A DNA stretch of 64,000 nucleotides from a virus (IMGVR_UViG_3300021141_000706), one strand, 5' to 3'. Counted from the first letter of the stretch, positions 2 through 62,408 are shown. The notes: a model not told the origin generated them from the sequence alone. A program made the numbers and translations.

Positions 2-277
2 AAAGTTTATTGTAAAAGAACTTGCTTTGAAAAGAATACAAATGCTTTTCCAGTAAATGGAAAAGAGTATGGTCAAGACTATGTTAAATGGGCTTGGGGT
101 AAGATATATGAATGTCACGAACCAAAAGATTATGAAAAATCGGCTACTTATTTAATAATAGAGTCTGAAGTAAAAGAATCTTGGTATCCAATAAGTGAGA
201 AGAATTTTAACAAACATTTTGAAACTTTAGAAGAAAATCGTAATAAGAAAATAGAAAAAATTTTAAAAAATGATTAA
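2..277 (+). CDS. 5'-truncated small hypothetical protein with C-terminal RxxKIxxIL tag
   Basis: Open frame from the window edge, KVYCKRT...WGKIYE...ENRNKKIEKILKND, TAA at 275-277; not in ORF track. Confidence 0.75.
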   Translation, partial: KVYCKRTCFEKNTNAFPVNGKEYGQDYVKWAWGKIYECHEPKDYEKSATYLIIESEVKESWYPISEKNFNKHFETLEENRNKKIEKILKND

Positions 278-779
278 AGAAATACCAAATTATTTAACCG
301 AACATGAATGTAGCATGTTGATTGGATTAGGAGAGTCTGGTCAATTAGATGCTGGTCGTGTATCTAATCATAAGTTGGCTTATAGAAAAGCCAGAGTTAC
401 TTGGTTAAAAACACAATCACCTTTAGTTGATAAAATTAAAAGTGATGTTGCTGAATTAACAGGATATCCAGTTGAAAATCAAGAAGATTTTCACTTTGTT
501 AAATATAACACTGATGGTGAATACAAAGTACACACTGATGGTAAAGATAGACCAAAAACTGCTTTAGTTTATTTAAATGATGGATTTGTTGGTGGTGAAA
601 CTGAGTTTCCAAAATTAAATACTATCATAAAGCCAGAAATTGGAAAGTTAGTGATATGGGACAATACTTTAGAAGATGGATCAAGTGATCCTAATAGTTT
701 ACATGCTGGATTGCCTGTAATTGTTGGTACTAAATACATTGGTGTTATTTGGATAAGAGGGGAAAAATATAAAAAATGA
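270..779 (+). CDS. 2OG-Fe(II) oxygenase, prolyl 4-hydroxylase-like
   Basis: HTD...H iron triad, YLND..GGETEFP, LHAGLPV..GTKY motifs. Confidence 0.85.
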   Translation: MIKEIPNYLTEHECSMLIGLGESGQLDAGRVSNHKLAYRKARVTWLKTQSPLVDKIKSDVAELTGYPVENQEDFHFVKYNTDGEYKVHTDGKDRPKTALVYLNDGFVGGETEFPKLNTIIKPEIGKLVIWDNTLEDGSSDPNSLHAGLPVIVGTKYIGVIWIRGEKYKK

Positions 780-1519
780 AATATTTATCAGATACAGAAA
801 TCCTTAACTGGAACAGAAGATTAGAAAGAAGTGATTACGCAGTTTATCCACTTTCCAATGTTAGATCAGGTCATCCTGACATCATCTTTAGACAAAAAAT
901 CAATAATGGTTATAGTCCTATGGGTGAACAACTTGTTGAAACAATTGATCCATTTATTCGATATGACTTTACATTCTCAGTAGCTTCTAACAGGAAAGAA
1001 ACATTTCATGACTTATTTGAAAAACTATCAAAAGATCCATTTGGTACTAAATCTATTTATAGAGATCAGAAAAGTGAGAAGATAATGGATATTACTTTTA
1101 ATGATACTGTTATTGAAAGTAAAGAAGTAAATACACACTTAGTTTTTGAAAAAGAGTATATTAGATTTACCATACATTTTGCTGGTAAGTTAGGATCTAT
1201 AATGGCTTATGTTTCTTATTTAGAAGATACTATTAATTTCTTCTCTGAGATTTGGGGTTATAATGAAGATGGTTCAGAAGTTTGTTTATTAAAATATCCA
1301 ATTGGTACAATTGTTTCTTTACCTAAAGATAAGTCTACTGATTATTTAGTTTTAGAATATAAGTATAGAAAATTAGATGATAAGTATTTTATCGATTTTA
1401 TTGCTAGTGAAATGTTAAATAATAAAGGTTCGGTTATAACTTATGGTGAGATTTATACATTTAGAGAATCAGAATTATGTTACAGTCGTAATTCAAGAAT
1501 TGATGATATTTTAAATTAA
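776..1519 (+). CDS. hypothetical protein with C-terminal tag
   Basis: 247 aa ORF with ATGA overlap; ends SRNSRIDDILN. Confidence 0.75.
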   Translation: MKYLSDTEILNWNRRLERSDYAVYPLSNVRSGHPDIIFRQKINNGYSPMGEQLVETIDPFIRYDFTFSVASNRKETFHDLFEKLSKDPFGTKSIYRDQKSEKIMDITFNDTVIESKEVNTHLVFEKEYIRFTIHFAGKLGSIMAYVSYLEDTINFFSEIWGYNEDGSEVCLLKYPIGTIVSLPKDKSTDYLVLEYKYRKLDDKYFIDFIASEMLNNKGSVITYGEIYTFRESELCYSRNSRIDDILN

Positions 1520-1527
1520 TAATTGAA

Positions 1528-2493
1528 ATGAAAGATTTAATAATAGTAACCGCCTATTGTAAAACTGAAGAGCAAGAAAGGTGTTTAGAAAAATGTATTG
1601 ATTCAGTAATTAAATCAGATGCTCACGTTGCTCTTATTTCACACTCACATGCTCCAATACATATTCAGAAAAAGTGTCAATATTATTTTTATGATTATCT
1701 AAATGATATTTCAGATGATTACAAACTACTGGGTTTAAAGTATTTCTCATTTAATAATAATGTTAATAATGTGATTCAATCTATATTTTTTGAAAAATAT
1801 TTTTATGGATTTGCCATTTATAGAATGTTTTCAATTGCTAGTCAAATAGCTATAAATTTTGGTTATCAAAATATTCATCATATTGAATATGACTGTGAGC
1901 TTTTAGATGTAAATCTTATAAACGAACACAGTAATTTACTTGAAGAATGTGATTCAGTAATTTATACAAACACTGGTAAAGAAGATGGTTTTCTTTATGG
2001 ATCATTCAAGTCATTTAAAGTTAGCTCACTTCCAGATAATTTCAAAAATTATAATCGTGAATTTATTAAAAATGAAATTTCAAAAATGAATCCAGCCGCT
2101 TTGGAGTTTTTAACAAAAAGAATTTTTATGAATTCCGGAAAAGTTTTATTTAAAAATACAAATGGATTGTATAATAGATTTAAGGGTGGTGAGCATTTTT
2201 ATAATAGAAATCTACACTATACTTTTTATTATAATCCTGATGACGGATCATTAAATTTATTTTATAAAGGTTTTGATTTTGAAGAAAAAATAACTGTTAT
2301 TGTTAATAAACAAAAAGTTATTAATTTGGATGTTAAACCAAATCATTGGTATGTAAGACCATTAGGTACATTTGATGAAATAGATAATGTTAGAATTGAT
2401 AACTCTGTTAAAATTTTATTTGAAAAGAATTTTGACCAAATCGAAAGAGAAATCTATAAAAATAAATCATTTATTTGTGAACAAAATAATTAA
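1528..2493 (+). CDS. hypothetical protein, possibly glycosyltransferase-like
   Basis: GT-A-like start (LIIVTAY...LEKCIDSV) and HIEYD acidic motif; sits in a glycan-related operon. Confidence 0.5.
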   Translation: MKDLIIVTAYCKTEEQERCLEKCIDSVIKSDAHVALISHSHAPIHIQKKCQYYFYDYLNDISDDYKLLGLKYFSFNNNVNNVIQSIFFEKYFYGFAIYRMFSIASQIAINFGYQNIHHIEYDCELLDVNLINEHSNLLEECDSVIYTNTGKEDGFLYGSFKSFKVSSLPDNFKNYNREFIKNEISKMNPAALEFLTKRIFMNSGKVLFKNTNGLYNRFKGGEHFYNRNLHYTFYYNPDDGSLNLFYKGFDFEEKITVIVNKQKVINLDVKPNHWYVRPLGTFDEIDNVRIDNSVKILFEKNFDQIEREIYKNKSFICEQNN

Positions 2494-3914: not shown

Positions 3915-3940
3915 CAATTCAAAAAGTTTTACTATCTTTG
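3910..3940 (+). promoter_or_regulatory. Bacteroidota sigma70-type (early) promoter for the tRNA-CUA operon
   Basis: TTTG-N19-TATCTTTG. Confidence 0.8.
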
Positions 3941-3951
3941 TAAAACAAATT

Positions 3952-4031
3952 GCGAGTAGAGTCTAATGCGGCGTGGAAGTCGCGGGCGCCTCTAAAACGT
4001 CTAACACCGGGTTCAAATCCTGCTACTCGCA
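3952..4031 (+). tRNA. tRNA-like gene with CUA (amber suppressor) anticodon and atypical fold
   Basis: GCGAGTAG/CTACTCGC acceptor stem, GGTTCAAATCC T-arm, CTCTAAA anticodon loop; no encoded CCA. Confidence 0.7.
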
Positions 4032-4044
4032 CTAATTTTTTATT

Positions 4045-4221
4045 ATGAAATATATTCTTGTTGCCCTATTATCTATTGCTCTTTTTTCTTGTAAAACACA
4101 AAAGACATCTTGTGATGCTTATTCCGTAAATCAAAGTGATACTACTTTTATCACACCCAATCATTATCATATAGAGTCAGAATATAAATGTGTTTGGTTG
4201 GATACGGCAGTTAGAAAATGA
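4045..4221 (+). CDS. small lipoprotein (58 aa)
   Basis: MKYILVALLSIALFSC signal with lipobox, then KTQKTSCDAY; below the ORF-track cutoff. Confidence 0.75.
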   Translation: MKYILVALLSIALFSCKTQKTSCDAYSVNQSDTTFITPNHYHIESEYKCVWLDTAVRK

Positions 4222-4508
4222 TAGTTCAAACTAAATTTCTTTGTAAAACAGGTAGCAGAACCGCACCGAGAGGTCCACTTGATGGTATTAAATGGCAAGA
4301 TAGATTCATTGAAGATAAGTGGTATGATGGTGAGTATGAAACTTGGTCTTGGGAAGATGGCTATAGAATAAATAGTGGATGGAGAAGATATTGGGTTATA
4401 AATGAACAAGGTGAGAAAGAAGAAATATCAAAACCAATGTTCAGATTACTTTTTGAAACTGATACACAACAATTAAGAGATAGAAAAATAGAAGACTTAA
4501 TAAAATAA
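4218..4508 (+). CDS. hypothetical protein with C-terminal tag
   Basis: Ends QLRDRKIEDLIK. Confidence 0.75.
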   Translation: MIVQTKFLCKTGSRTAPRGPLDGIKWQDRFIEDKWYDGEYETWSWEDGYRINSGWRRYWVINEQGEKEEISKPMFRLLFETDTQQLRDRKIEDLIK

Positions 4509-4514
4509 AATAAT

Positions 4515-4916
4515 ATGTACGATAACGAATCAACCAAAGAGAACCAAATTCATGTTTCAAATGAGTTTGTTGATATATTCTCAAACTTCAACGTTGTAAC
4601 ACAAGTTGAAAAAATGAAACAACTTACTAAGCGTGAGTTGTATTTACTTCTAACCGTTTGCTTAGATAAATTCTCTGATGAAGATCCTGTTGTTAAACAC
4701 AACTTACTTCCTTTCAAAGAAGAAATTATGAATATCTTTGATGTTCAAGATGATAAAGATGCTATTGACTCAGTGCTGATTGATTTAATCACTGAATCTG
4801 GTGATAAATACATTGAAACTGATAACATCGTTTATAATGACGACCAAAAGTTACCAGAGCCTTTAACCAAAGACCAAGTTCGTGATGCTAAAATTAATAT
4901 CATCAACGAGAACTAA
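4515..4916 (+). CDS. hypothetical protein with C-terminal tag
   Basis: Ends QVRDAKINIINEN. Confidence 0.75.
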   Translation: MYDNESTKENQIHVSNEFVDIFSNFNVVTQVEKMKQLTKRELYLLLTVCLDKFSDEDPVVKHNLLPFKEEIMNIFDVQDDKDAIDSVLIDLITESGDKYIETDNIVYNDDQKLPEPLTKDQVRDAKINIINEN

Positions 4917-4933
4917 TTCTAAATTATTTTTAC

Positions 4934-4941
4934 TATATTTG
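4934..4941 (+). promoter_or_regulatory. early promoter -7 element
   Basis: Intergenic TATATTTG upstream of 4960. Confidence 0.6.
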
Positions 4942-4959
4942 TAATCTAAATAAAAATTC

Positions 4960-6759
4960 ATGGAAGAAACATTAAATACTGAACAAGAAGTGAAACAACC
5001 TGTAATTGGTGAGTTCAAACCTAAGCGCAAGTTCTTAAACTTTGTATCGGCTGTAAACGGAGCAAGAATTCGTTTCATCCGTGATATCGCATTTGTAAAA
5101 GGCGAGAAACTATCTGGCACCTTAGAAGGTGTCGTTTTCAAAATCACAATCTGTGATGAAGGTACAATTAACTTTGAAGAAGTTGATACTACTGTAACTG
5201 ATGCGGCTCAACGTAAACGTCTTATTGATGATATTGATTCAACTGATGTTACAGGTTACGCTCAGAAATTTGTAGTTGCTGGTATTCAGTTTGCTGATGT
5301 TAATGGTGACCTTTGCTATCTTGAAGTAGAACAAATGAAACCAATTGATAAATTGAAATCTATCTTTGACGATGAAGAAACTCCTTCTTTGTCTAATAAA
5401 GGTATGAGTTTTCTTGATGATTTACTAAGTGGTTCTAATGAAGTTGAAACATTAGAATTGTCTGAAAAAGATGCTGAGATTTTTGTTGAAGCTATTGAAA
5501 ATCCACCATCACCAAATGAAAAATTAATCAAAGCTTCTGAGTCTTATTTGGAACAACAATTCCGTAAGATGAATGAAGATAAAATTAATGAGTTAAAAAA
5601 CCGCATTGAGGATGCTGAGAAAGAGTCTGCTCGTTTAAGAAGAGAGATCTCTATGAATGAAACTAAGTTGAAGAAACAAACAGAAGATTTAGGTGTATTA
5701 GAAACTCGTTTAGATAGTTTCAATGCTAATGATGAATCTACGGGTTATGTATTCTTCGTTTCGGAAGAACAAAAGCCAGAAGAAATTGGATTAACAGAAG
5801 ATAACAGAGCAATGGCTGATAAGATTGCGGATATCGTTGGTCTTAAAAAAGATGTTCTTTTCAAAATGTTAACAGAAGGTCACTACAAAATTCGTATTGC
5901 TGAGAAATCAGATATGACTGCTGAGAAAGTAAAAGTTACTAATGATATCTTAGAAAAGATGAAGGCTTTGGTTAATGGTGATAGTTCACTTGAAGCTAAA
6001 GTAACTATGACTGAACCAGGTCAGTTTGAGTATCGTGGTAGTATGACTTGGCATCAAATTGTTGGTAAGATGATTCGTAAAGGATTTGAACAAGAGCCAG
6101 AGTTTGATAAGATTTGTCAATCTAACTCTTACGATTCTAAAGAAGAGGTTAAAGATGAAATGTCTGATATGAAATCAGACATTCAAAAAATGGCTGATGG
6201 TTTAGGTCTTGGTAAAGTTGATTTTGGTAAAGACGGAATTTCAGTAGAAGGTGAGACAAAAACACCTTCAATTGAGATTAAATCAAAAACTGTAAGAACA
6301 TACAAAGAAGAAACTACATTAGTAGTTGTAGGTACAATCGACCACGAGGATAACCGTGATGTTGAAATCACTGACGACTATACCGGATTTGAAGTTTATG
6401 TTGGTAATAAAAAGATGAAGGGTGGTTATGAGTCCGATGGATTTATTTCAATTATGACTTTAACAGAGTTTGCTAAATGGCAAAAACAATACCCAGATGC
6501 TATGACTGATGGTGGTGGTATAGGTTCATTCTTATTACCTAACTTCAAAGGAACTATTGGAGTAACTGCTATGTATGATGTAGGTGAATTCACAAATGAA
6601 TTTGATTTGGATGATTACATTCTACACCAAGATGGAATGGAAGATGCTTATGTGTCCTTGACTCTACCAGAAGGAACTCAAATTATGAAGATGGATGATT
6701 ATCATCAAGTTCCAGTTGCCGCAATGAGAGATATTAAAATCAATAAAATAATTAAGTAA
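4960..6759 (+). CDS. hypothetical coiled-coil protein with C-terminal tag
   Basis: 599 aa, central heptad region; ends AMRDIKINKIIK. Confidence 0.8.
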   Translation: MEETLNTEQEVKQPVIGEFKPKRKFLNFVSAVNGARIRFIRDIAFVKGEKLSGTLEGVVFKITICDEGTINFEEVDTTVTDAAQRKRLIDDIDSTDVTGYAQKFVVAGIQFADVNGDLCYLEVEQMKPIDKLKSIFDDEETPSLSNKGMSFLDDLLSGSNEVETLELSEKDAEIFVEAIENPPSPNEKLIKASESYLEQQFRKMNEDKINELKNRIEDAEKESARLRREISMNETKLKKQTEDLGVLETRLDSFNANDESTGYVFFVSEEQKPEEIGLTEDNRAMADKIADIVGLKKDVLFKMLTEGHYKIRIAEKSDMTAEKVKVTNDILEKMKALVNGDSSLEAKVTMTEPGQFEYRGSMTWHQIVGKMIRKGFEQEPEFDKICQSNSYDSKEEVKDEMSDMKSDIQKMADGLGLGKVDFGKDGISVEGETKTPSIEIKSKTVRTYKEETTLVVVGTIDHEDNRDVEITDDYTGFEVYVGNKKMKGGYESDGFISIMTLTEFAKWQKQYPDAMTDGGGIGSFLLPNFKGTIGVTAMYDVGEFTNEFDLDDYILHQDGMEDAYVSLTLPEGTQIMKMDDYHQVPVAAMRDIKINKIIK

Positions 6760-10202: not shown

Positions 10203-11618
10203 TTAAAATTTTATGTACCAAGCTTTAACTGGTATACCTAGTTGTAAAGCTACTGTAGTTCTTTTATGACCACCAACTAAATGATATGGTTTACCTTCTG
10301 TATTTTTCAAGTTGATTATAAATGGTGCTGGTTTAGATATTGATTTTTCTTTAACTAATTCATCATAAGTAAATAGGTATCTTTCCATATCTTTTGAATT
10401 TGGTGCTAAATCAGTTTTTAATCTACTTCTTAAATCCTCTATACCTTCTACTCCTGATTTGAAAGATATTTTACTTTTAAAACCTCCTTTACCAGAGTTA
10501 GGACCAAATACTTGAGTTAAATCACCCATATTACCAGTTTTTTTAACTTCATCTAAAGACCAGTCTTGTAGTTTACCTGATTTGATTAGGTTAAATACCT
10601 CTTTCTTAATATCTGCTGGTGTATTTTCTTTAAAACTTTCCATATCAGCACCTAAACCAATTTGGTCTGGATTTTTACCTACAACTAAACCTCTGATTTC
10701 TTCTTTATCAGTAGTTTCTTTCTTTAAGTATTTAGATACAATATAATGATATACACTTGGTAGTTTAGAATAAACTTTATCAAAGTTATCTTTAATAAAG
10801 AATAATTCTATATTATTAAGTAATTCATGCATTTCTTGATTAATCAATTCATCAGTTGGACCTTGCCAAGTTATTGAATACTTTTCATTAAAATTCTCAT
10901 AAAACTTTAAATATTTCATTTTATAATTGAATGACTCAGCTACCGAACCTTTTGAATTTTCAATAACTTCTTTACTTGTAGTTGTAAAGTAATAACCTTG
11001 TTTCATAAAGTCATTTCTATTAGCAACTTCAGCACCATTTTTACCTGGAAAAGCTGTCATAACAGAAAGAACTGATTTATCTCCTATTTTACCAAGTTTA
11101 GCACCAATGAAACTCAAGAAAGTAGTTTTTTCACCTTCACCTTCTTTTACTTTAATATTAAATTCATTACCTCTTGAATCTTTATAAGTATAAACATTCA
11201 TTGATTTGAATTCATCAGCATTTGGTTCTAATTTATGAACATTCTCAACACCAACATTTGTTTTAGAGTCTAAACCTAACCATTTGAACTTTTCAGCTTC
11301 TTCTGGATTAGTTACTTTAGATTCACTTGGTCCAAAACCTTTTGTCATTTCAGTTGGTTTATTATTTGAAACTAAACCAATAATTGCTTTTTTCAAATCA
11401 ACTCCTTTTTCAAATTTAGAACCAGGAATTGTCTCATCAACGTGAGCATCTGTGATGTGTGTTAAATCACCAAGTAGAAGAATAAAATCACCAGCTTCAA
11501 ATACTGTTGAGTTGTCAGCTTTTACTTTACCTTTTAAAAATTGATTATTATCAATCATACTTTGTATTTCTTGATAAAGTGTTTCATTTAAGTCTTCAAA
11601 CATTTTTAAGTGTTTCAT
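10203..11618 (-). CDS. putative internal virion protein with C-terminal ParB/Srx-like domain
   Basis: Begins MKHLKMFEDLNE; second MKYLKFYENFNE motif internally; LVGGHKRTTVALQLG near C-terminus. Confidence 0.65.
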   Translation of the reverse strand: MKHLKMFEDLNETLYQEIQSMIDNNQFLKGKVKADNSTVFEAGDFILLLGDLTHITDAHVDETIPGSKFEKGVDLKKAIIGLVSNNKPTEMTKGFGPSESKVTNPEEAEKFKWLGLDSKTNVGVENVHKLEPNADEFKSMNVYTYKDSRGNEFNIKVKEGEGEKTTFLSFIGAKLGKIGDKSVLSVMTAFPGKNGAEVANRNDFMKQGYYFTTTSKEVIENSKGSVAESFNYKMKYLKFYENFNEKYSITWQGPTDELINQEMHELLNNIELFFIKDNFDKVYSKLPSVYHYIVSKYLKKETTDKEEIRGLVVGKNPDQIGLGADMESFKENTPADIKKEVFNLIKSGKLQDWSLDEVKKTGNMGDLTQVFGPNSGKGGFKSKISFKSGVEGIEDLRSRLKTDLAPNSKDMERYLFTYDELVKEKSISKPAPFIINLKNTEGKPYHLVGGHKRTTVALQLGIPVKAWYIKF

Positions 11619-11619
11619 A

Positions 11620-11874
11620 TTAAAATTCTATTTTTTCAACGTCATTTAAATCGACATTGTATTGTTTTCCATCAATCTCAACGGTGATTAAGCCATCTTG
11701 ATCAATATCAATCGGAGTTATACCTTCTTCAGGTTTATTTTCAGGGAAATCATGAACAATAGTTGAATAAATAAGACCTCTATTTTTTATACACTTGATA
11801 ATATCATCTTGTGTTATAAGAGTTCCTTCCTCATTATTCTTCTTAAAATCCTCAAAAAGTTTCATCCATTTCAT
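11620..11874 (-). CDS. small hypothetical protein with N-terminal leader
   Basis: Start moved to MKWMKLFEDF, just after TTAATATATA. Confidence 0.7.
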   Translation of the reverse strand: MKWMKLFEDFKKNNEEGTLITQDDIIKCIKNRGLIYSTIVHDFPENKPEEGITPIDIDQDGLITVEIDGKQYNVDLNDVEKIEF

Positions 11875-13229: not shown

Positions 13230-13239
13230 TTAATATATA
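13230..13239 (+). promoter_or_regulatory. putative late promoter
   Basis: TTAATATATA just before ATG 13244. Confidence 0.7.
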
Positions 13240-13243
13240 ACAT

Positions 13244-14008
13244 ATGAAATACTTAAAAAGATTTAACGAAGAACTTAGACCAAGAACATATCTATCTGCT
13301 GCTAAAAAATTAACAGCTATTGGACATACTGATAGAGCTAACACCCTAAAAGATTGGGCTAATGAAACTGAAAAAAGAGAAGAAATTGCTAAATGGAAAG
13401 AACAACTTCAAAATTATTCACCATTTGGTATTTATAAAGTGAATGTTGTTAATCCAGAAAGTGGTGAAAAATTCACTGCTGATTTTGCGTTAGATTTAAG
13501 TTTTGATGAATTAGCATTTGAAGATAACTTTGAATATGAAAAACAAAAAGATCCAAACAATATTAGTGAAGTAAGTATTTTCTTTTTTGTTGGTTTAATT
13601 CCTACATCAGAAGAAGTTCTTAAAAAATGTGAAGAAGTAATGCCTGAACCTGAATTTGGTAACGGTATGTACTGGGGCATGTCTTGTGGTATAGATTTCA
13701 AAGTCGAAAATGGACAAGTTATACTTGATAAATTTGCCTTAGATGATTATGACGATAACTTATCTGGTAATGTTTCTTTTGCTGATAGAGCTTCTGCTGG
13801 TAAATTCAAAAACTTATTAAAAAGTATTTTTAGTAACCCTGACTTAAATTATCCAAGTGGATATACTGATGCTGATAGTATCTATCAGAAATTAGAACAA
13901 GTTATTTTAATTCAACAAGGATTCTCATCTGATTATGGATTTGAATTAAAAAATATTGCCGACTTTATTAACACTCAATCACCAAATACAATGTATAAAA
14001 CTATTTAA
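13244..14008 (+). CDS. putative internal virion protein, paralog 1 of 3
   Basis: MKYLKRFNEE leader; TYxSAAxKLxxxGH motif. Confidence 0.75.
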   Translation: MKYLKRFNEELRPRTYLSAAKKLTAIGHTDRANTLKDWANETEKREEIAKWKEQLQNYSPFGIYKVNVVNPESGEKFTADFALDLSFDELAFEDNFEYEKQKDPNNISEVSIFFFVGLIPTSEEVLKKCEEVMPEPEFGNGMYWGMSCGIDFKVENGQVILDKFALDDYDDNLSGNVSFADRASAGKFKNLLKSIFSNPDLNYPSGYTDADSIYQKLEQVILIQQGFSSDYGFELKNIADFINTQSPNTMYKTI

Positions 14009-14009
14009 T

Positions 14010-14837
14010 ATGAAACATCTAAAAAGTATTAATGAATTAAAATCTAGTACATATGCTTCTGCTGCTAATAAGTTGAAGAATATGGGTCATATTAGAAGAT
14101 CTGGTGAATTAGAACAATGGACTAAAGAAGTCCAAAATAAAGAAAAAGATGCTAGAGAATTAGAAAATTTTAATTCATTCAAACACGGTGTTCCTTTCAA
14201 AATTAACTTAGTTAAAGTTAAATATAATAGTGCTACTAAAAGTAGAGATCATGACATAATGGTTACAGGTAACTTTTATCTAAAGCCTTCTTTTGATTTT
14301 TCATGGGCTCAAGATCAATACAATGATAATGCTGATGAGAATGGAAATACTGAATACTCTTACTATATGCCTTTTGAAGTAGGTATAATGGCAGCAGATG
14401 AAGAAACAAAAGAGAAATTCAGATCAATTGAAGAAAATCTTTCTGATGAAGTATATGAAGGAGTTTATTGGTTACAAAGACTTTATTATAAAATAATTAA
14501 TGAAGGTTCTAAAGAAATAACTCCAACTGGTGAATTTTCTTGGGAATGTAGAGAAAGTGATGAAATAATGTTTGAAAATAGAGCCGAGGCTTTAAGATTC
14601 AAAAAGATGTTTGTTGATGCGGTTCACGGTAGAAATACTTTTGGTAATTCAAAATGGGTACCAAGTATGCATGAAGAATTAAAGAAATTCTTTTTAGGTG
14701 ATTGGTTACAGAGATATAATCGTGATACAAAATCATATGATAAAGTAGACAGACAAGAAGTATTTAACGAAGAAGCTTTCAAAAGATTCTTAGATTCAAC
14801 TAATAAAATGTCAATAAATCAATTATATAGAAACTAA
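14010..14837 (+). CDS. putative internal virion protein, paralog 2 of 3
   Basis: Start moved to MKHLKSINE; TYASAANKLKNMGH. Confidence 0.75.
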   Translation: MKHLKSINELKSSTYASAANKLKNMGHIRRSGELEQWTKEVQNKEKDARELENFNSFKHGVPFKINLVKVKYNSATKSRDHDIMVTGNFYLKPSFDFSWAQDQYNDNADENGNTEYSYYMPFEVGIMAADEETKEKFRSIEENLSDEVYEGVYWLQRLYYKIINEGSKEITPTGEFSWECRESDEIMFENRAEALRFKKMFVDAVHGRNTFGNSKWVPSMHEELKKFFLGDWLQRYNRDTKSYDKVDRQEVFNEEAFKRFLDSTNKMSINQLYRN

Positions 14838-25509: not shown

Positions 25510-25537
25510 AAACAAATTATTCATAAATAGATATAAT
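25510..25537 (+). promoter_or_regulatory. putative middle promoter
   Basis: AAAC-N18-TATAAT. Confidence 0.55.
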
Positions 25538-25542
25538 CTACA

Positions 25543-26446: not shown

Positions 26447-26447
26447 T

Positions 26448-42752: not shown

Positions 42753-42784
42753 TTTGGCTAAAATAAAAATTGTTTGTATATTTG
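42753..42784 (+). promoter_or_regulatory. early promoter
   Basis: TTTG-N20-TATATTTG ending 5 nt before ATG 42789. Confidence 0.75.
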
Positions 42785-42788
42785 TAAC

Positions 42789-43151: not shown

Positions 43152-43166
43152 TAAAAAACAACATAT

Positions 43167-47260: not shown

Positions 47261-47540
47261 CTTATTTAAGATAGTATTTTCAATTGTAATTTACATTATA
47301 CTATCACCAGTCATTATTCCTATTTTATTAATCAATGAAGTAAGATGGAATAAAGGTGTTTGTAGAAAGTGTAACTCTGATAGATATTATTTAGATTTCA
47401 GACCAGATAAGTTTATTAATCATCACTATGTTTGTAAGAAGTGTGGATATAGATTCTTATCATCAAGACATAGAATTCAACCAAGTGATAACCAATTAAA
47501 AACTCTTATAAGAGGTAATAAGATAAATAAAATATTATAA
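47247..47540 (+). CDS. membrane-anchored Zn-ribbon protein with C-terminal tag
   Basis: TM helix, CRKC...CKKC, ends LIRGNKINKIL. Confidence 0.7.
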   Translation: MEFYNLFKIVFSIVIYIILSPVIIPILLINEVRWNKGVCRKCNSDRYYLDFRPDKFINHHYVCKKCGYRFLSSRHRIQPSDNQLKTLIRGNKINKIL

Positions 47541-47541
47541 A

Positions 47542-47829
47542 ATGATTTATCCATCAAGAATAAAAGGTCAGGAATATCCTCTTAGTAAGGGGGATATTGT
47601 TGTTTGTATAACTGAGAGTTTTCAAGAGTTCACTTATGGTAAGCAATATCAACTTTATTGTGATTTCGATTTAAACGTTTCGGTGACACACCGTTATTCA
47701 ACTCTTCCAATTAACTCTGACTTAGGAAATCAACCTTTACCTGCTTATTACTCACCAACTGGTTATTACTTTCTACCTCTTCATATTTGGAGAGAATTGA
47801 AAATAAACAAAGTATTGGAAAATGAATAG
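47542..47829 (+). CDS. small hypothetical protein with C-terminal tag
   Basis: KGDIVVC..FTYGKQY; ends IWRELKINKVLENE. Confidence 0.75.
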   Translation: MIYPSRIKGQEYPLSKGDIVVCITESFQEFTYGKQYQLYCDFDLNVSVTHRYSTLPINSDLGNQPLPAYYSPTGYYFLPLHIWRELKINKVLENE

Positions 47830-48076
47830 AATATTGAAAATTGGAGACAGAGTTAGGAATGTAAGAGTAGGTGTTTATAAAGATGAACCTATTGTTATAG
47901 TTGGTGAATCTGACAATAACAATTCACTTAAAATTAAATTTAACAGATATCATATTAAATATCTAAATGTTTTTACTGTTAGTGGTGATAATATGATGTC
48001 TTGGGTAGATGAAAGTGATATAGTTTTAGATATAGAATATTATAGAAACGAAAAATTAAATAAGATATTAGAATGA
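47822..48076 (+). CDS. small hypothetical protein with C-terminal tag
   Basis: KIGDRVR; ends YYRNEKLNKILE. Confidence 0.75.
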   Translation: MNRILKIGDRVRNVRVGVYKDEPIVIVGESDNNNSLKIKFNRYHIKYLNVFTVSGDNMMSWVDESDIVLDIEYYRNEKLNKILE

Positions 48077-48942
48077 TTGCTATATGTTCATTAGTTAGAA
48101 AACCTTTTAATTTTGATACCTGGGTTAATTATCATATAAGTATAGGCGTTTCTAAATTTCTTTTAAGTGTTGAAGACACACCAGAACTTAAAGAGGTGAT
48201 TGATAGTTATGGTGAATTGATAGAAGCTGAATACATTTCAATGGATTCTAAGGATAAGTTTTATGATAGAAACTATTGGACTCTAATGGATAGACAAAAG
48301 ACTTTTGTTACCAAATCAATAGAAAGATGTAAAGAGTTATCAATTGAATGGTTGATACATGTTGACACTGATGAACTTTTATGGTGTGGTGATTCTGTAT
48401 TAGATTTAGTAAATAATGTAAGTAAAGATGTTGATTATATAACTGTCAAAAATTATGAAGCTGTTTATACATCAGATGATTTAGAAAATCCTTTTCTACA
48501 AACTAATACATTTATCAGCTCAAATATGACCGCATATGATAGTGGTAAAAGTATAGGTAGAATTTCACCAAATTTAGAATTCAGAGGAGCTCATGCTTTC
48601 ACTGGACAACACCAAAATATAGAAACTAAAAAGGCAGTTGTTTTACATTTTGAATCTGCTACATTTGAAAAATGGTTTGAGAAATTCAACAATATAACTA
48701 ATTCATATAATTTTTCAGATACTCAAGGGATGGGAGAGTATATGATAGATGATATGAAAAATGAAATAAAAGAAGTTCCTATAACTTTTTATCGAGATTC
48801 ATCAAGACTTGTACGATCAGGTGACATAAAAAAGTGTAGAGAGTATTATAACAAAATGAAAGTTTCTAGATATAACCCTCATACTTGGAAGTTATACTGG
48901 ACACCATTACTACCAGAAAAAAATAGCCACTGGTTAAGATAA
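48073..48942 (+). CDS. glycosyltransferase (GT2/GT92-like)
   Basis: WVNYH..IG, WLIHVDTDE, GKSI, VLHF. Confidence 0.8.
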   Translation: MIAICSLVRKPFNFDTWVNYHISIGVSKFLLSVEDTPELKEVIDSYGELIEAEYISMDSKDKFYDRNYWTLMDRQKTFVTKSIERCKELSIEWLIHVDTDELLWCGDSVLDLVNNVSKDVDYITVKNYEAVYTSDDLENPFLQTNTFISSNMTAYDSGKSIGRISPNLEFRGAHAFTGQHQNIETKKAVVLHFESATFEKWFEKFNNITNSYNFSDTQGMGEYMIDDMKNEIKEVPITFYRDSSRLVRSGDIKKCREYYNKMKVSRYNPHTWKLYWTPLLPEKNSHWLR

Positions 48943-48952
48943 ATAATAAATT

Positions 48953-49297
48953 ATGACAAAAATATATTTAGCAATTCCGTATTCAAGATACGAAGAAAAA
49001 AGTTTTAAGTTAGCCAATGAAATTGCGGCTCAATTAATTAATATGGGCCACGTTGTGTTCTCACCAATCAGTATGTCACATCCAATTGCGGTTCACGGTA
49101 ATCTAAAAGGTGACTGGGAAACTTGGAAAAGAATTGATTTTGAATTCATTAAATGGTGCGATGAGGTAGTAGTTGTAAACTTTGATGAAGAAGCTGTTGC
49201 TAACTCAACAGGTGTTCAAGGTGAATTAGAATTTGCTACAGAACTTGGTAAAAATATCAGATATTACTATGACAAGTCACGAGTGGAGAATAACTGA
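48953..49297 (+). CDS. DUF1937 / nucleoside 2-deoxyribosyltransferase-like protein
   Basis: IYLAIPYS, VFSPISMSH, STGVQGELEFA. Confidence 0.75.
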   Translation: MTKIYLAIPYSRYEEKSFKLANEIAAQLINMGHVVFSPISMSHPIAVHGNLKGDWETWKRIDFEFIKWCDEVVVVNFDEEAVANSTGVQGELEFATELGKNIRYYYDKSRVENN

Positions 49298-49556
49298 TAT
49301 GATTGAAAAGGGATTAGTCAGCTATGTCAAAGGTGAAAAGGTTGTACTATTCCGTAGAAAATCAAATGGTTATCCAAAAGGAATTAAAGACGGTGTTGAA
49401 TATACTATAAGAGGAATCTATGGTGAAGGTATTGAAGTTGCCTTAAATTCTTCTAATGGTATTGGTTTGTTACAATCAATAAAAGTACACAGAAGTTATA
49501 TGATTCCAAAATATGCTCTACGAGATATCAATCTTAAAAAACTTCTTAATAGTTAA
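49269..49556 (+). CDS. small hypothetical protein with C-terminal tag
   Basis: Start moved to ATG 49269; ends ALRDINLKKLLNS. Confidence 0.7.
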   Translation: MTSHEWRITDMIEKGLVSYVKGEKVVLFRRKSNGYPKGIKDGVEYTIRGIYGEGIEVALNSSNGIGLLQSIKVHRSYMIPKYALRDINLKKLLNS

Positions 49557-49566
49557 ATACTATAAT
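49539..49566 (+). promoter_or_regulatory. putative middle promoter
   Basis: AAAC-N18-TATAAT. Confidence 0.55.
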
Positions 49567-49585
49567 AAAAAACAAAAAAGAATAA

Positions 49586-50764
49586 ATGGGAAAATTAGCC
49601 TTAAACTTTATCTGTAAAGATGAATCACATGTAATTGGTAAAATGCTTGAAAGTTGTAAAACTATCACTGACTTAATCGTAGTTAATGATACTGGATCAA
49701 CTGACGGTACACAAGATATAATCAGAAAATTCGGTGAAGAAAATAACATACCAACGTATGTTTTTGAAAGACCTTTCGATGACTTTGAAAAAAGTAGAAC
49801 TCACGCAATGGAAAAACTTCGTGATGTTGTTAAAGAATTAGGTTGGGATCCAAACAAAGTTCATGGATATTGGTTTGACTGTGATGAGACTTTAATAATT
49901 GATCCTAAGTTTAGTAAAGACCAATTTGTTAATGACCTTTATATGATCAACACTTTCATTGGTCAGATGAAATACACTCGTAATACTTTCTTCAAAGTTT
50001 CTAAACCTTTTAGATGGTATGGTCCAATTCACGAATTTATTGTTTGTGATGAACAAAATATCACATCTGGTTTAGCTGAAAATATTCACGTTGATGTTAA
50101 GATGACTGGTGCTTCTTGGCAAGGTGATATCCCAACTAAATATAAGAATCACGCTTTTGTATTAGAAAAATATATTGATGCTAATCGTCAAGATCCTCGT
50201 TGGATTTTTTATACAGCTCAATCATATCATGATTCTGCTTCTATGCCTGATAATAAAGAAGAAAATGAAGAAAGATTGCGTAGAGCACTGAAGTACTATA
50301 AAGAAAGAGTTAATAGAACTGACGGATATGCTGAAGAGATTTATTATTCTCAGTTTCGTATTGGAACTATTATGAGAAGTTTAGAAGAACCTTGGAACCT
50401 AACACATCAAGAGTTATTAAAAGCTTACAATATGGATCCGACGAGAGGCGAATCTATTAAAATCATCATTGATTACTATCTACAAATGAATGAGTGGAAT
50501 ATGGCTTATCTTTACTCTAAGTTTGCTAAAGTAAATTTTCACGGTAAGAATCCTTATCCTAATAGATTATTATTCGTTGATGAAGCACTTTATATCTGGA
50601 AGTTTGCTGAAGCTCATGCTGCCACTTGTTTCTACACAGGTAGAATGGACGAGGCTAAGGCTACATACCAAGAGATAGTTAATATTTCTAAAACATCACC
50701 ACAATACTTTACTCCAGAAGACTTTGCTAAACTACAACAAAATGCTCAATTCTTCAATAGATAA
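49586..50764 (+). CDS. GT2 glycosyltransferase with TPR domain
   Basis: ICKDE, DTGSTDGT, FDCDE, GPIHE, helical repeats. Confidence 0.85.
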   Translation: MGKLALNFICKDESHVIGKMLESCKTITDLIVVNDTGSTDGTQDIIRKFGEENNIPTYVFERPFDDFEKSRTHAMEKLRDVVKELGWDPNKVHGYWFDCDETLIIDPKFSKDQFVNDLYMINTFIGQMKYTRNTFFKVSKPFRWYGPIHEFIVCDEQNITSGLAENIHVDVKMTGASWQGDIPTKYKNHAFVLEKYIDANRQDPRWIFYTAQSYHDSASMPDNKEENEERLRRALKYYKERVNRTDGYAEEIYYSQFRIGTIMRSLEEPWNLTHQELLKAYNMDPTRGESIKIIIDYYLQMNEWNMAYLYSKFAKVNFHGKNPYPNRLLFVDEALYIWKFAEAHAATCFYTGRMDEAKATYQEIVNISKTSPQYFTPEDFAKLQQNAQFFNR

Positions 50765-50766
50765 AG

Positions 50767-51246
50767 ATGATAAAGATAATAGTAGCAACATCAAAGAATA
50801 AAGTTATTGGTAACAATAATGAATTGATATGGAAACTATCATCTGATCTTAAACGATTCAAAGAATTAACTACTGGTCATCCAGTTGTGATGGGTAGAAA
50901 AACTTATGAATCAATTGGTAAACCTCTTCCTAATAGAAGAAACATAATCATAACGAGAAACTTAGAATACGAAGTTAATGGTTGTGAGGTAGTTTCTTCT
51001 TTAGAAGAGGCTTTACTTTTAACAAACAATGATTGTTTTATTATCGGTGGTGGTGAAATCTACAAACAATCATTAGAAGTAGCTGATAAAATTTATCTAA
51101 CACTTGTTCATAAAGACTTTGAAGGTGATACAACATTCCCTGAATTAGGTAAAGAGTGGGCTACAATTGATACTAAAGACTTTGACGCTGATGAAAAAAA
51201 CGAATATAACTATTCATTTATAGAATATGACAGATATGAATTCTAA
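50767..51246 (+). CDS. folA: dihydrofolate reductase
   Basis: DLKRFK, MGRKTYESIGKPLPNR, IGGGEIY, GDTTFP. Confidence 0.95.
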   Translation: MIKIIVATSKNKVIGNNNELIWKLSSDLKRFKELTTGHPVVMGRKTYESIGKPLPNRRNIIITRNLEYEVNGCEVVSSLEEALLLTNNDCFIIGGGEIYKQSLEVADKIYLTLVHKDFEGDTTFPELGKEWATIDTKDFDADEKNEYNYSFIEYDRYEF

Positions 51247-51802
51247 GAAAGGTAAATTAATTATGGTAATGGGTCCACCTGCTAGTGGTAAAAGTACATT
51301 AGCCGCTGAAGTTCATACAGAACTAAAGAAGAAAGGAATCAATTCTGCTTTCGTTAGTGAAGCAGCAACCGATTATATTGCTGAGTATGGAGTTCCTAAC
51401 TCACCGTCAGATCAGATGGTGATTTTCTATAAACAGTTAAACAGAGAGAAGATGTTTTTAGAGTCAAAAGATTATATTATCTGCGACTCTAGTTCTATTC
51501 TTAATTACTTTTACTTTAGATCTTTATTTTCAACAGAACTTACTAATAAAGATATTGCTTCTATCAATCATATTCAAAAGGAAATTCTAAAACATATCAA
51601 TACAATCGATATGGTGTTCTATGTACCACCGATCGATACAGATACTAATGATGGTATCAGATTTCACCAGGGAGATGAAATAAAGAGACTTGGTGTCTTA
51701 ATTAAGTCTTACTTAGAGATGGAGAATATTACTCACCAAGATTTAACAACGGTTGATATGAAAGACCGTGTTGATTACATAATCAAATCTATTTTAAAAT
51801 AA
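51227..51802 (+). CDS. AAA_28/NadR-like P-loop kinase
   Basis: GPPASGKST, VSEAA, IICDSS, DGIR. Confidence 0.75.
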   Translation: MTDMNSKKGKLIMVMGPPASGKSTLAAEVHTELKKKGINSAFVSEAATDYIAEYGVPNSPSDQMVIFYKQLNREKMFLESKDYIICDSSSILNYFYFRSLFSTELTNKDIASINHIQKEILKHINTIDMVFYVPPIDTDTNDGIRFHQGDEIKRLGVLIKSYLEMENITHQDLTTVDMKDRVDYIIKSILK

Positions 51803-58587: not shown

Positions 58588-58833
58588 TTATCTAATTGGT
58601 TTGTAATTAGGAATAGCACCTTTGTAATTGTTGTTACTTTTTCTGATTTCTTCGTGTTCAGCTTCTGCTGCCGCTTGATATTCAGGATCATTCTTTTCGT
58701 CTTGTTTACAAGTCATACAGATGACATCTTCGTTAAACATAGACATTGTAGTAACACCATTAGTCGGTTCACCACATCTATCACAGATAGATTTATTCAT
58801 TCCAAAAGATTCGTATGTTTTTAAGTGTTTCAT
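58588..58833 (-). CDS. small Zn-finger protein with N-terminal leader
   Basis: MKHLKTYESF then CDRC...MSMFNEDVICMTC. Confidence 0.75.
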   Translation of the reverse strand: MKHLKTYESFGMNKSICDRCGEPTNGVTTMSMFNEDVICMTCKQDEKNDPEYQAAAEAEHEEIRKSNNNYKGAIPNYKPIR

Positions 58834-58834
58834 A

Positions 58835-59338
58835 TTATTTCTTAATAGTGTTTACATCAGTCTTTTGGAAGTTATCAAAGTTCATAACTTTCTTTTCACC
58901 GTTCTTAGTTTGACCTGCGGTAAAGTCTTGTCTTTTAGCAAAAACATTTTTAAGAGCCTTCAAATCTAATTTCTTTTCTCTGGACTTTTTACCAGTTCTA
59001 GCACCATGATTAGAACCCATCACAGGAATCTTTTGAAACATTCTATTAGATCCACCTGGGTTATAAGGAACAGAGACATCACCTGATCCAGCCTTACCAC
59101 CACCTGATGCCCAACTTGTACCAATTGTTTGTCCTGCTAAACCTGAAGGTTGAGCATTAACAACAGCACCCATACCACCCACTGAACCAGCAGGTCCGCC
59201 GGTAGCTGAAGTATTTTCAATTAATAATTCTCTTTGGGATATTTTCTCACAAAGTTTCAAATATCCTTCTTCAGAAGAAAGATTTTCTTGTTCCATTTTC
59301 TCTTTTAAGAGATATAATTGATGTAATGACATTTTCAT
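58835..59338 (-). CDS. Gly-rich hypothetical late protein
   Basis: YLLKE and LLIE potential cleavage sites; TTAATATATA at 59343-59352. Confidence 0.7.
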   Translation of the reverse strand: MKMSLHQLYLLKEKMEQENLSSEEGYLKLCEKISQRELLIENTSATGGPAGSVGGMGAVVNAQPSGLAGQTIGTSWASGGGKAGSGDVSVPYNPGGSNRMFQKIPVMGSNHGARTGKKSREKKLDLKALKNVFAKRQDFTAGQTKNGEKKVMNFDNFQKTDVNTIKK

Positions 59339-59352
59339 ATTGTATATATTAA

Positions 59353-59655
59353 TTAGTGATTTCTATTTAAATCGAATGTTATTTCATACCCGTTTTTTTC
59401 AGACCATTCTCTAACAACATCTATCTTATCACCTAATTTAAATGGAAGATTAAGTTCTTCTAATTTTATTTCAGAATAAATCTTCATATCAGTGATGACA
59501 TTTTTAACTTGTGTATAATAAATATGTAATTCAAACTTCTTAGACTTTCCTAAGAACCAACTTTTATGATAGCCTTCTATAGCTAAATGATTCATAAATC
59601 TTCTTATGTTTGAACCACCCATAAATTCATTAAAATTTTTTATTTTATTACTCAT
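59353..59655 (-). CDS. putative internal virion protein
   Basis: MSNKIKNFNEF leader. Confidence 0.7.
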   Translation of the reverse strand: MSNKIKNFNEFMGGSNIRRFMNHLAIEGYHKSWFLGKSKKFELHIYYTQVKNVITDMKIYSEIKLEELNLPFKLGDKIDVVREWSEKNGYEITFDLNRNH

Positions 59656-60971: not shown

Positions 60972-60991
60972 TTCAAAAAAGAATTAATTAA

Positions 60992-61009
60992 TTTAATATA
61001 TATATTAAA
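60992..61009. promoter_or_regulatory. palindromic bidirectional late-type promoter
   Basis: Perfect palindrome TTTAATATATATATTAAA between divergent genes. Confidence 0.7.
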
Positions 61010-61028
61010 ATACTACAACACAAATCTA

Positions 61029-62408
61029 ATGAAATGGCTAAGAGATTATAAATTATTCAAGGAAGCAAGACAAGAGAAGGTTTCTTATAAGAACCTAGTT
61101 GGAGAAATCTGTACTGCGATGGTTTTGTTAAACAACGAATTCCTTGATAATATATTAGATAGAGGTTTGAAAGCTAGATATTCTGAAAATTCAGAAATAT
61201 TTATCACAGACTTAAAGAATCTTCTTCTAGCTAAGAACAGATTAAACTTAGGTAGATTTGAAGGTGATACTTGTGTTACTGATGATGAGATATCTAAAGC
61301 TAGCCTATTATTTGATTCAATTGAATTTGACATTGAAAAAGATTGGGATAAATTAGTTGCTGCTAGAACAACTGCTAGAAATATTATTGATAAATTATTA
61401 TTAGATTCTAAATTAAAACCTGAGATGATTAAAAACATTTTCTGGATTGGTCCTAATAAAGATTCTGATCATCAAGAGGATATAGTTGTTGAAGATAAAG
61501 ATGGTAATCAATATAGTTTTTACTTAAACAAAAACTTAGCAACTCAAAAGTCTGCTTCATTTAATTTATTTGCGGATGAGTTAATTGGTGCTGATATTGA
61601 TAGATTATACAAAGAAGATTATTTATCTAAATGGGATAAACTAACTCAAGAGTGGATTAGATTAATTTATGAAAATGCTAATAAAAATATTCAACAGTTG
61701 ATTGAGAAGTTTATTGATGCTAAAAGAATTGATACTATTGGTTATTTTGAATACTTTGATATAAGACACAAAGATCCTAAGTTCAAACATTTAGGTGAAT
61801 TCATACAAGAATATGATAAAAACATTCTTAAATTCTCTGACTTAATGAATGAGATTTGGAAAAGTAAAGAAAATAGCTTTATGGATTCTGAAAGAGTTAC
61901 CAAAGAGTGGATGGAAATTAAAATAGTTATTCTTAACTCTAAAATTCTTGAAAATCTTTTAACATCAAGTCTTAAATCAAATCACACAGATGATATCCAA
62001 AAAGCTGAAGATGGTTGGAAACTTGCTGGTGGTACAGTTAAGATGAAATTATTTAAGACTTTAGTTGAGAAGATGGGTTGTTTAGAAAGACCTATTTACT
62101 TCTTAGGTAAAAATGGTGATATCTTTAATTTAGTTCCTTCAAGAGAATTCTTTAGAGAACATTATGATGACTTAAAAATCAAATTTGATTATCATGTTAA
62201 TTTTGAAGTTAGTGAAGAAGAAGAGAATAATGATTTTACAATAAAAATAAAATTAGAGTTAGACGATACTACTTTAATTGATATGTTTATTATTGTTAAG
62301 TTCTCTGGTGGTGAGATGTCTGGTAAGTTATCTGCTAAATATAAATTTGATATTGCCGACAACTTCAACTATTTAATTTCAAAAAAACAGTCTAATCAGT
62401 CAGAATAA
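61029..62408 (+). CDS. putative internal virion protein
   Basis: MKWLRDYKLFKEA leader, 459 aa. Confidence 0.7.
   Translation: MKWLRDYKLFKEARQEKVSYKNLVGEICTAMVLLNNEFLDNILDRGLKARYSENSEIFITDLKNLLLAKNRLNLGRFEGDTCVTDDEISKASLLFDSIEFDIEKDWDKLVAARTTARNIIDKLLLDSKLKPEMIKNIFWIGPNKDSDHQEDIVVEDKDGNQYSFYLNKNLATQKSASFNLFADELIGADIDRLYKEDYLSKWDKLTQEWIRLIYENANKNIQQLIEKFIDAKRIDTIGYFEYFDIRHKDPKFKHLGEFIQEYDKNILKFSDLMNEIWKSKENSFMDSERVTKEWMEIKIVILNSKILENLLTSSLKSNHTDDIQKAEDGWKLAGGTVKMKLFKTLVEKMGCLERPIYFLGKNGDIFNLVPSREFFREHYDDLKIKFDYHVNFEVSEEEENNDFTIKIKLELDDTTLIDMFIIVKFSGGEMSGKLSAKYKFDIADNFNYLISKKQSNQSE

Follow-up and report, generated by a model that had tools for sequence, protein, structure and literature searches.

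A 64,000 nt stretch of viral DNA (IMGVR_UViG_3300021141_000706; "the window" hereafter means this whole stretch) comes from a giant lake phage in which about one third of the proteins bear one of two short terminal peptides, an N-terminal leader (N-leader) or a C-terminal tag (C-tag). Are proteins with the two tags sent to different addresses? A first-pass annotation of the window had proposed that the tags never share a protein, that they follow promoter class, and that together they form a two-address sorting system. We found both tags on many unrelated proteins, separated from each other and divided by promoter class across whole genomes. With some reserve, we lean towards the view that the phage labels its fast-turnover accessory proteins with one of two portable peptides leading to two incompatible fates.

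Genomes and gene calling

The window DNA is about 30% G+C, densely coding and has three tRNA genes. It derives from a T4-like megaphage of Bacteroidetes-type hosts, and among database sequences it is closest to the uncultured "huge phages" LR745206 (634,780 bp), LR756502 and LR756504. Genome-wide tests were run on complete relatives, foremost LR745206 and LR756504. Seven related genomes were compared: LR745206, LR756504, LR756501, LR756500 and the cultured phages PAU, MA9V-2 and pT24. Genes were called with our own codon-usage caller, which gave 87 genes in the window and 943 in LR745206 (93-94% coding).

Two terminal peptides on unrelated proteins

The N-leader has the consensus M-K-[HY]-L-K-x-[FY]-[NE]-E-F-x-E and is present on 15 of the 87 called window genes. 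The C-tag, R-[DEN]-x-K-[IL]-x-x-[IL]-[LI], lies 0-8 residues before the stop codon of 16 called window genes and of a cut open reading frame at 2-277. At a threshold of 8 bits or more, N-leaders were detected on 152 of 1030 called N-termini against 6 of 3046 internal-Met peptides (small profile), and C-tags on 197 of 1029 C-termini against 0-5 at control positions shifted inwards. The tail past the C-tag motif was 0-2 residues long in 75% of 310 tags.

When the tags were stripped before BLAST comparison, the 889 mutually unrelated families of LR745206 included 111 with the N-leader and 179 with the C-tag. This clustering rules out paralogy as the source of the pattern and bears out the earlier claim that the tags are portable across proteins. 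Tagged genes turn over quickly: about 2-5% of them have orthologues between megaphages, against about 24% of untagged genes, and the small C-tag carriers (median 105 aa) are nearly never conserved. Among 59 orthologue pairs between the window and LR745206 the tag state was mostly retained (8 C-C, 7 N-N), with no swap between N-leader and C-tag.

Synonymous codons within both tags match genome usage. For the invariant Arg of the C-tag, AGA was seen 130 times against 138 expected, with AGG at 29 and CGT at 11; selection therefore acts on the peptide and not on the RNA. An RNA-level signal would make the tag codons translation-initiation regions, as A/T-rich 5' ends of leaderless late mRNAs or as A-rich gene ends serving the next start. 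The richness of the tags in Lys, Asn and Ile codons and a slight leaning of C-tag positions 8-9 to ATA and TTA fit this idea. However, the pattern is residue-specific with fixed spacing, codons for Arg, Lys, Glu, Phe and Tyr are used as in the genome at large, and internal-Met and shifted-position peptides lack the motifs. The synonymous-codon test gave the idea no support, and we consider it scarcely credible.

Of five single-sequence AlphaFold2 models of one C-tag protein, one reached a pLDDT of 76.8 and the remaining four about 40; one N-leader protein gave 58.5. The models suggest a partly helical tag region and are too unreliable for more.

The tags follow promoter class

Three promoter motifs were considered. 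The motif AATATATA occurs 304 times in LR745206, with 71% of the copies in intergenic DNA (7% of the genome). It stands ahead of the portal gene, the protease and capsid unit and the sheath unit of LR745206, and so marks the virion-gene class. Of its 20 copies in the window, 18 closely precede a start codon and are correctly oriented. The distance from AATATATA to the start codon in LR745206 is 0-9 nt (about half of cases) or 15-29 nt, with nearly none at 10-14 nt. This spacing, which the window shows too (at 13232-13243 and 31487-31494, among others), means that about one late gene in two may be translated from a leaderless or near-leaderless mRNA.

The second motif is TAnnTTTG; TTTG is enriched 24-21 nt upstream of 93 such sites. 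Bacteroidetes sigma-A promoters have the consensus TTTG at -33 and TAnnTTTG at -7, and TAnnTTTG with TTTG about 20 nt upstream is of this form. The extended motif TAnnTTTGTA occurs 19 times in the window against 9.2 expected. The third, AAAC-N17/18-TATAA, is a genuine motif of its own: in LR745206, 33 of 60 copies with N17 and 16 of 40 with N18 fall between genes, whereas other spacings give 2-8. Window operons of the two non-late classes encode DHFR, FolD, PRPP synthetase, Dam and sugar enzymes.

Phage T4 likewise has three classes, namely host-sigma early, activator-dependent middle and gp55-dependent late (TATAAATA). The set described here resembles it in having a host-type motif, an upstream box with a -10 element, and an A/T-rich 8-mer near the start that heads virion genes. 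It differs in the motif sequences, and its temporal order is predicted from the motifs: "early" and "late" are used here for promoter type alone.

Each gene was assigned the class of the nearest motif found by walking up its same-strand gene run (late, host-type or AAAC-N17/18-TATAA). Family and operon votes used an earlier leader scoring matrix, and the gene counts for the window and LR745206 a later profile. The counts were as follows.

Window, late to host-type: N-leader 11:1, C-tag 0:15; p=9e-7.
LR745206, late to host-type: N-leader 115:6, C-tag 27:106; p=2e-37.
LR745206, one vote per family, late to host-type: N-leader 94:5, C-tag 27:106; p=3e-33.
LR745206, one vote per operon, late to host-type: N-leader 65:4, C-tag 12:55; p=4e-21.
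LR745206, motif in the gene's own upstream region: N-leader 62 late, 2 host-type, 0 AAAC; C-tag 0 late only, 29 host-type, 9 AAAC.
LR756504, late to host-type plus AAAC: N-leader 41:7, C-tag 12:85; p=3.5e-18.

As proposed, the tags track promoter class, in the window and in both relatives, and the C-tag genes stand behind TAnnTTTG or AAAC-N-TATAA motifs; in LR756504 they are mostly of the AAAC class. Circular shifts of the gene order never matched the observed concordance (0/77 in the window, 0/933 in LR745206, 0/911 in LR756504 and 0/996 in LR756501). The association thus holds at gene, family, operon and circular-shift level, and the last two tests rule out operon clustering as its cause. 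Two details of the first-pass annotation fared less well. C-tag genes, described as all on the plus strand, are so in the window, but in LR745206 105 are on the plus and 75 on the minus strand. The gene at 9735-10202, listed as a C-tag gene with an exceptional promoter, has no C-tag (score -3.3).

A link between promoter and tag could also arise without any sorting, if the tags were evolutionary hitchhikers on two kinds of cassette for gene birth or shuffling (a promoter with the first codons; the last codons with the next start), each copied as one piece. Mobile promoter cassettes do shuffle genes in T4-type phages (PMC2839356, PMC4122927), tagged genes turn over fast, and the late motif is within 9 nt of the ATG in about half of cases. 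Against this, 69 of 137 leader genes and 139 of 181 C-tag genes in LR745206 lie inside operons with no promoter of their own. The tag-to-stop distance varies over 0-8 residues, the amino acids are kept although their synonymous codons vary at genome frequencies, and the leader is conserved from PAU to the megaphages. We regard such cassettes as a very unlikely explanation.

Mutual exclusivity

In the window no protein bears both tags, against 2.8 expected (p=0.035). Given promoter class the expectation falls to 0.4, so that the window by itself proves little. The pattern is far stronger in the complete relatives: LR745206 has 137 N-leader and 181 C-tag genes and a single protein with both, against 26.3 expected (p=6e-13). 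Within promoter classes 13.2 would be expected, and none of 20,000 permutations was as low as 1. LR756504 (capsid protein 53% identical; 64 N-leader, 113 C-tag) has none, against 7.9 expected (p=1.7e-4). The tags thus almost never share a protein, much as first suggested, and the frequent co-occurrence that would have spoken against a sorting system is absent from both relatives.

The N-leader resembles the T4 capsid-targeting sequence

The N-leader is most likely a T4-type capsid-targeting sequence (CTS). The T4 CTS, MKTYQEFIAE, is carried by IPI-III and Alt and removed by gp21. Both it and the leader are 10-12-residue N-terminal peptides on unrelated cargo, with hydrophobic or aromatic residues at positions 4 and 7 and hydrophobic-x-Glu at the end. 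Putative late expression with head genes would be a further likeness, and the phage has gp20-, gp21- and gp23-type head genes. The differences are those of sequence (MK[HY]LKx[FY][NE]E), of the residue before Glu (often aromatic, F or Y, where T4 has L/I-x-E) and of number: 15% of genes (137 in LR745206), known here from sequence alone, against a handful in T4. The N-leader would be a known kind of signal on an unprecedented scale.

In 216 leaders, position 4 is L or I in 80% and position 7 is F or Y in 82%; hydrophobic-x-Glu lies within residues 6-16 in 87% of leader proteins against 25% of others. The T4 sequence brings internal proteins into the prohead core (PMC9026906, PMC3012670); its residues 4 and 7 govern targeting, and cleavage by gp21 is directed by residues 8 and 10 (PMC9026906). 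The leader is present in all seven related genomes, on 7 to 137 genes, together with T4-type head genes. LR745206 matches T4-type portal and capsid families (PF07068, 88.7 bits; PF07230, 194.7 bits); none of these genes lies inside the window.

The lead that weighs most comes from Sphingomonas phage PAU, a cultured relative. Its gp142 and gp154 (both annotated internal capsid protein), gp152 (annotated scaffolding) and seven neighbours start MKT[LI][ST]xLYE[AS], and 15 of its 21 leader genes lie at 100-121 kb beside the portal, protease and capsid genes. The PAU leader (MKTLTQLYEA) is of the same kind and ends in L-Y-E; the gp23-type capsid protein (25% identity) and the Peptidase_S77 protease are shared as well. 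PAU differs in that its 21 carriers are for the most part encoded in the head module and that it lacks the C-tag. On maturation the PAU capsid protein shortens from 585 to 520 aa (PMC5646251), implying cleavage behind L-M-E at residue 65; in the alignment this site corresponds to I-N-E in the capsid protein of LR745206 and to I-H-E in that of LR756504.

The N-leader might instead be a general handle for late proteins, used by a chaperone or in the assembly of tails or other virion parts, and merely resemble the T4 CTS. The very many carriers (137 in LR745206), their spread over at least 65 units and the lack of a leader on major structural proteins would suit such a handle. Yet in PAU an equivalent leader heads the scaffold and the proteins annotated as internal to the capsid, whose genes cluster with those for portal, protease and capsid. 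Moreover, the T4 targeting positions 4 and 7 are the conserved hydrophobic positions of the leader (PMC9026906), and hydrophobic-x-Glu is enriched after it. A general handle seems to us improbable, and homology supports the capsid half of the sorting interpretation well.

The first-pass annotation had also suggested that a CCA-adding enzyme of the window (16023-17192) gained its tag. This is plausible: solved CCA enzymes (PDB alignments) align only from residue 16-32 of the protein, so that its leader is an N-terminal addition.

Two side observations concern head proteins. Small genes like pieces of the major capsid protein or prohead protease occur in LR745206 at 93266-93520, 207176-207907, 291407-291880 and 460435-460635; they bear an N-leader (84 aa), a C-tag (243 aa, 66 aa) or neither. 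In LR756500 (L108-L131, for example record 11706-15898), 11 proteins end in N-A-D-D-F-G-[FLM], and most also start with an N-leader. T4 Alt is trimmed at both termini, and these proteins, conserved at both ends, recall it. We rejected "NADDFGF" as another tag, as the 11 proteins are mostly of similar length with an N-leader and probably form one paralogue family.

The C-tag and its candidate readers

On a helix, the conserved C-tag residues 1, 4, 5, 8 and 9 would share one face; they lie beyond the domain and close to the free C-terminus. In the DUF2158 family, 42 of 58 representative clusters (50% identity) carry the C-tag and the most distant homologues lack it. Gain of the tag by this YodC-like domain, as earlier proposed, is therefore plausible. 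Among the genomes compared, the R-x-x-K-I tag is confined to LR745206, LR756504 and the phage of the window; it was not found in LR756500, LR756501, PAU, MA9V-2 or pT24. In LR756501 (735,411 bp), 45 proteins bear another C-terminal tag, [ST]-x-L-D-P-Y-G-E-E-[ND]-W followed by about 2 residues, against 1-4 matches at shifted control positions. Carriers of this tag are mostly in host-type units; examples lie in L132-L168 (record 552409-556034 and 499642-503452), several with leader-like N-termini.

Only 27 genes occur in both R-x-x-K-I genomes and in none of the other five. Conservation among them is highest for PrkA (640 aa, 65% identical between LR745206 and LR756504) and DUF444, both present in 2/2 tag-bearing and 0/5 tag-less genomes. 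In LR745206, genes for Hsp70/DnaK, a PrkA AAA+ protein and a DUF444/YeaH-type protein were located at L027:13636-15510, L028:112-2034 and L028:2157-3419. The Hsp70/DnaK is full-length (PF00012, 832 bits), and PrkA matches PF08298 and PF06798. Hsp70 is weakened as a C-tag reader, since tag-less LR756501 also has it. PrkA/DUF444 is a candidate reader, and we treat it as a lead.

The SspB C-terminal ClpX-binding (XB) peptide and the C-terminal degrons of AAA+ proteases are the nearest known parallels to the C-tag. Like them, it is short and conserved, stands at the very C-terminus beyond the folded domain, and might be read by a single machine. There is no sequence likeness, and about 190 unrelated carriers are involved here. 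We found no description of the C-tag or of the clean split by promoter class.

One specific version of a C-tag destination is proteolysis. The C-tag would be a tether or degron, and its carriers either adaptors delivering bound targets to a phage-encoded AAA+ proteolytic machine (PrkA plus a DUF444/YeaH-type vWA partner) or early proteins which that machine clears at the late switch; head cargo must be stable, hence the exclusivity. PrkA and DUF444 top the list of 27 with their presence in both tag genomes and none of the five others, and three quarters of the tags end 0-2 residues from the C-terminus. PrkA relatives act in ATP-dependent proteolysis (PMC9512850, PMC13684143), and E. coli YeaG drives bulk proteolysis in starvation (PMC13684143). 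However, the co-occurrence comes from two positive genomes and possibly one evolutionary event, 25 other genes show the same presence pattern, and PrkA could be a mere metabolic takeover gene. We hold a degron or proteolysis tether to be unlikely.

Tagged genes in the window

The N-leader genes and late units are listed below; bit scores are those of the leader hidden Markov model.

11880-11887, minus: AATATATA of the unit 10203..11874, 5 nt from the first ATG.
11620-11874 and 10203-11618, minus: N-leader pair in one late unit, starting MKWMKLFEDF (15.7 bits) and MKHLKMFEDL (471 aa; 18.9 bits).
13232-13239, plus: AATATATA of the operon 13232..15972, 4 nt from the ATG.
13244-14008, 14010-14837, 14837-15604 and 15604-15972, plus: four N-leader genes of this late operon, all MK[YH]LK (20.6-24.5 bits).
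15999-16006 and 16010-16017, plus: dual promoters of 16023-17192, host-type TATATTTG and late AATATATA.
16023-17192, plus: N-leader (starts MKLKRYNQFLES; 11.3 bits) fused to a CCA-adding/poly(A) polymerase-family enzyme.
31487-31494, minus: AATATATA of the late unit 29678..31494.
30444-31481 and 29678-30439, minus: N-leader genes of this unit, starting MKHLKSYQLFEA (21.8 bits) and MIIKKYKLFLEE (9.9 bits).
31486-31959, minus: sub-threshold leader-like start (MIKRWSTFNEN; 6.1 bits) with its own AATATATA.
32317-33609, minus: sub-threshold leader-like start (MKVINNFSGFVNEE; 7.0 bits) with its own AATATATA; zeta-toxin/AAA_33-type kinase from residue 28.
39175-40299, minus: N-leader gene (MKYVKTFESH; 18.3 bits); AATATATA at 40324-40331, 24 nt from the ATG.
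58588-58833, minus: N-leader gene (MKHLKTYESF; 81 aa; CxxC motif; 22.0 bits), second in a late unit headed by AATATATA at 59343-59350 (minus).
59353-59655, minus: N-leader gene (MSNKIKNFNEF; 9.2 bits) behind the variant TTATATATA.
60339-60971, minus, and 61029-62408, plus: divergent N-leader pair, starting MRVIKSYNKFKES (15.0 bits) and MKWLRDYKLFKE (17.5 bits).
60995-61006: overlapping back-to-back AATATATA motifs, promoters of this pair.
29103-29420, plus: doubtful N-leader (starts MKYKKIIKEWKE) within an AAAC-N18-TATAA operon.
52989-53642; unit 55697-56029 / 53964-55685; 56151-56870; 57505-58587: untagged late genes behind AATATATA.

The untagged genes, one of which (57505-58587) has a Laminin_G_3 lectin fold, indicate that the late promoter is not limited to leader genes. 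In a Pfam search no family was matched by the N-leader proteins of 13244-15972 or 58588..59655. A zinc-finger "family" with the N-leader, proposed in the first-pass annotation, had no Pfam match, and only a CxxC motif is visible. In the protein of 16023-17192 the PF01743 match begins at residue 38. A homologue search with this protein returned nothing but near-identical phage variants; more than 100 of these (94-100% identity) exist in public metagenomes, and the contigs that carry them reach 816,658 bp. The phage lineage is therefore common, and assemblies longer than the published ones exist.

The C-tag genes of the window all lie on the plus strand.

2-277 (cut; ends RNKKIEKILKND) and 776-1519 (ends RNSRIDDILN), plus: C-tag genes at the window edge, promoter beyond the window.
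3933-3940 and 4934-4941, plus: host-type promoters TATCTTTG and TATATTTG of 3933..6759.
4218-4508 (RDRKIEDLIK), 4515-4916 (RDAKINIINEN) and 4960-6759 (RDIKINKIIK; 599 aa), plus: C-tag genes, 14.2-20.6 bits.
25510-25536, plus: AAAC-N18-TATAA heading the operon 25510..29688.
26481-26759, 28198-28536 and 29458-29688, plus: C-tag genes of this operon, interleaved with a Dam-type methylase and an IMP cyclohydrolase piece.
35097-35104, plus: host-type promoter TAAATTTG.
37317-37622, plus: C-tag gene (ends RDKTIEDIIKKES), third in the operon behind it.
42777-42784, plus: host-type promoter TATATTTG of the long operon 42777..49556.
42858-43151, 44129-44458, 46973-47260, 47247-47540, 47542-47829, 47822-48076 and 49269-49556, plus: its seven C-tag genes (13.1-22.3 bits), interleaved with PRPP synthetase and FolD.
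49539-49565, plus: AAAC-N18-TATAA of the operon 49539..51802 (glycosyltransferase-like gene, DHFR, AAA_28 kinase).
51227-51802, plus: the AAA_28 kinase, with a weak C-tag (9.0 bits).

The 76-residue protein of 29458-29688 has DUF2158 at residues 6-47 and the C-tag at 62-70. The 599-aa C-tag protein of 4960-6759 is encoded directly upstream of a metallopeptidase-vWA gene (7283-8848; DUF2201_N + DUF2201), whose possible partner at 24311-25450 is an AAA+ ATPase with weak AAA_5/AAA_3 matches under the Pfam cut-offs. The two resemble the MoxR-vWA pair known from group 2.2 jumbo phages (PMC7824862). Two large genes at 18041-22444 (minus) have signal-peptide-like starts, and the C-terminus of one resembles a type IX secretion sorting domain; none of the phage promoter motifs could be recognised ahead of them (all judged by eye).

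A model for the two tags

In the model that we favour, N-leader proteins would be expressed along with the head genes, from the late AATATATA promoter. The leader most likely docks cargo on the prohead scaffolding core through hydrophobic positions 4 and 7, and is then most likely cut after hydrophobic-x-Glu by the T4-type prohead protease. The freed cargo, for example the CCA-adding enzyme or the zeta-type kinase, would stay in the head and be delivered with the DNA. The C-tag, a predicted short amphipathic helix with one conserved face (R1, K4, I/L5, I/L8, L9), would be borne by small proteins whose host-type and AAAC-N17/18-TATAA promoters act ahead of the late phase, and most likely docks its carriers to a single putative reader common to all of them. 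Exclusivity would follow, as a head-bound protein must not be taken to, or consumed at, the other site. Of the earlier two-address proposal, exclusivity and the split by promoter class stand and the capsid half is backed by homology; we infer that C-tag proteins are sorted to another address.

Several points weigh against this reading. The late motif is missing from 6 to 12 percent of N-leader genes, and late-headed units of LR745206 contain 15-28 C-tag genes. In LR756501 the D-P-Y-G-E-E-N-W tag co-occurs with leader-like N-termini (6 against 2.4 expected), so that exclusivity is no general rule for C-terminal tags in the family. Peptidase_S77 (PF03420) reaches 20.1 bits in LR745206, under the Pfam cut-off, although it is above the cut-off in 4 of 5 other relatives. 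To our knowledge, 137 head-cargo species (15% of genes) would far exceed any known phage. Finally, every statistic depends on our own gene calls.

A bolder form of the model is an address code serving as an adaptor hub for host takeover. An ancient N-terminal label would load more than 100 cargoes into the head, and a lineage-specific C-terminal label (R-x-x-K-I-x-x-I-L in two genomes, D-P-Y-G-E-E-N-W in the 735-kb genome) would plug about 190 "bait" proteins into one phage machine, with PrkA/DUF444 as leading candidate. We put this forward tentatively, as a rather unlikely outcome.

Implications

If the favoured model is true, the fate of one in three "dark" proteins of the largest known phages would be readable from sequence, as injected with the DNA or as acting earlier elsewhere. 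It gives a concrete list of proteins for virion proteomics, suggests that the loading of head cargo has been scaled about 30-fold over T4, and exposes an undescribed putative C-terminal docking system with 27 candidate readers. The T4 CTS can load foreign proteins into phage heads (PMC9026906, PMC3012670), and the tags might serve as handles in the same way.

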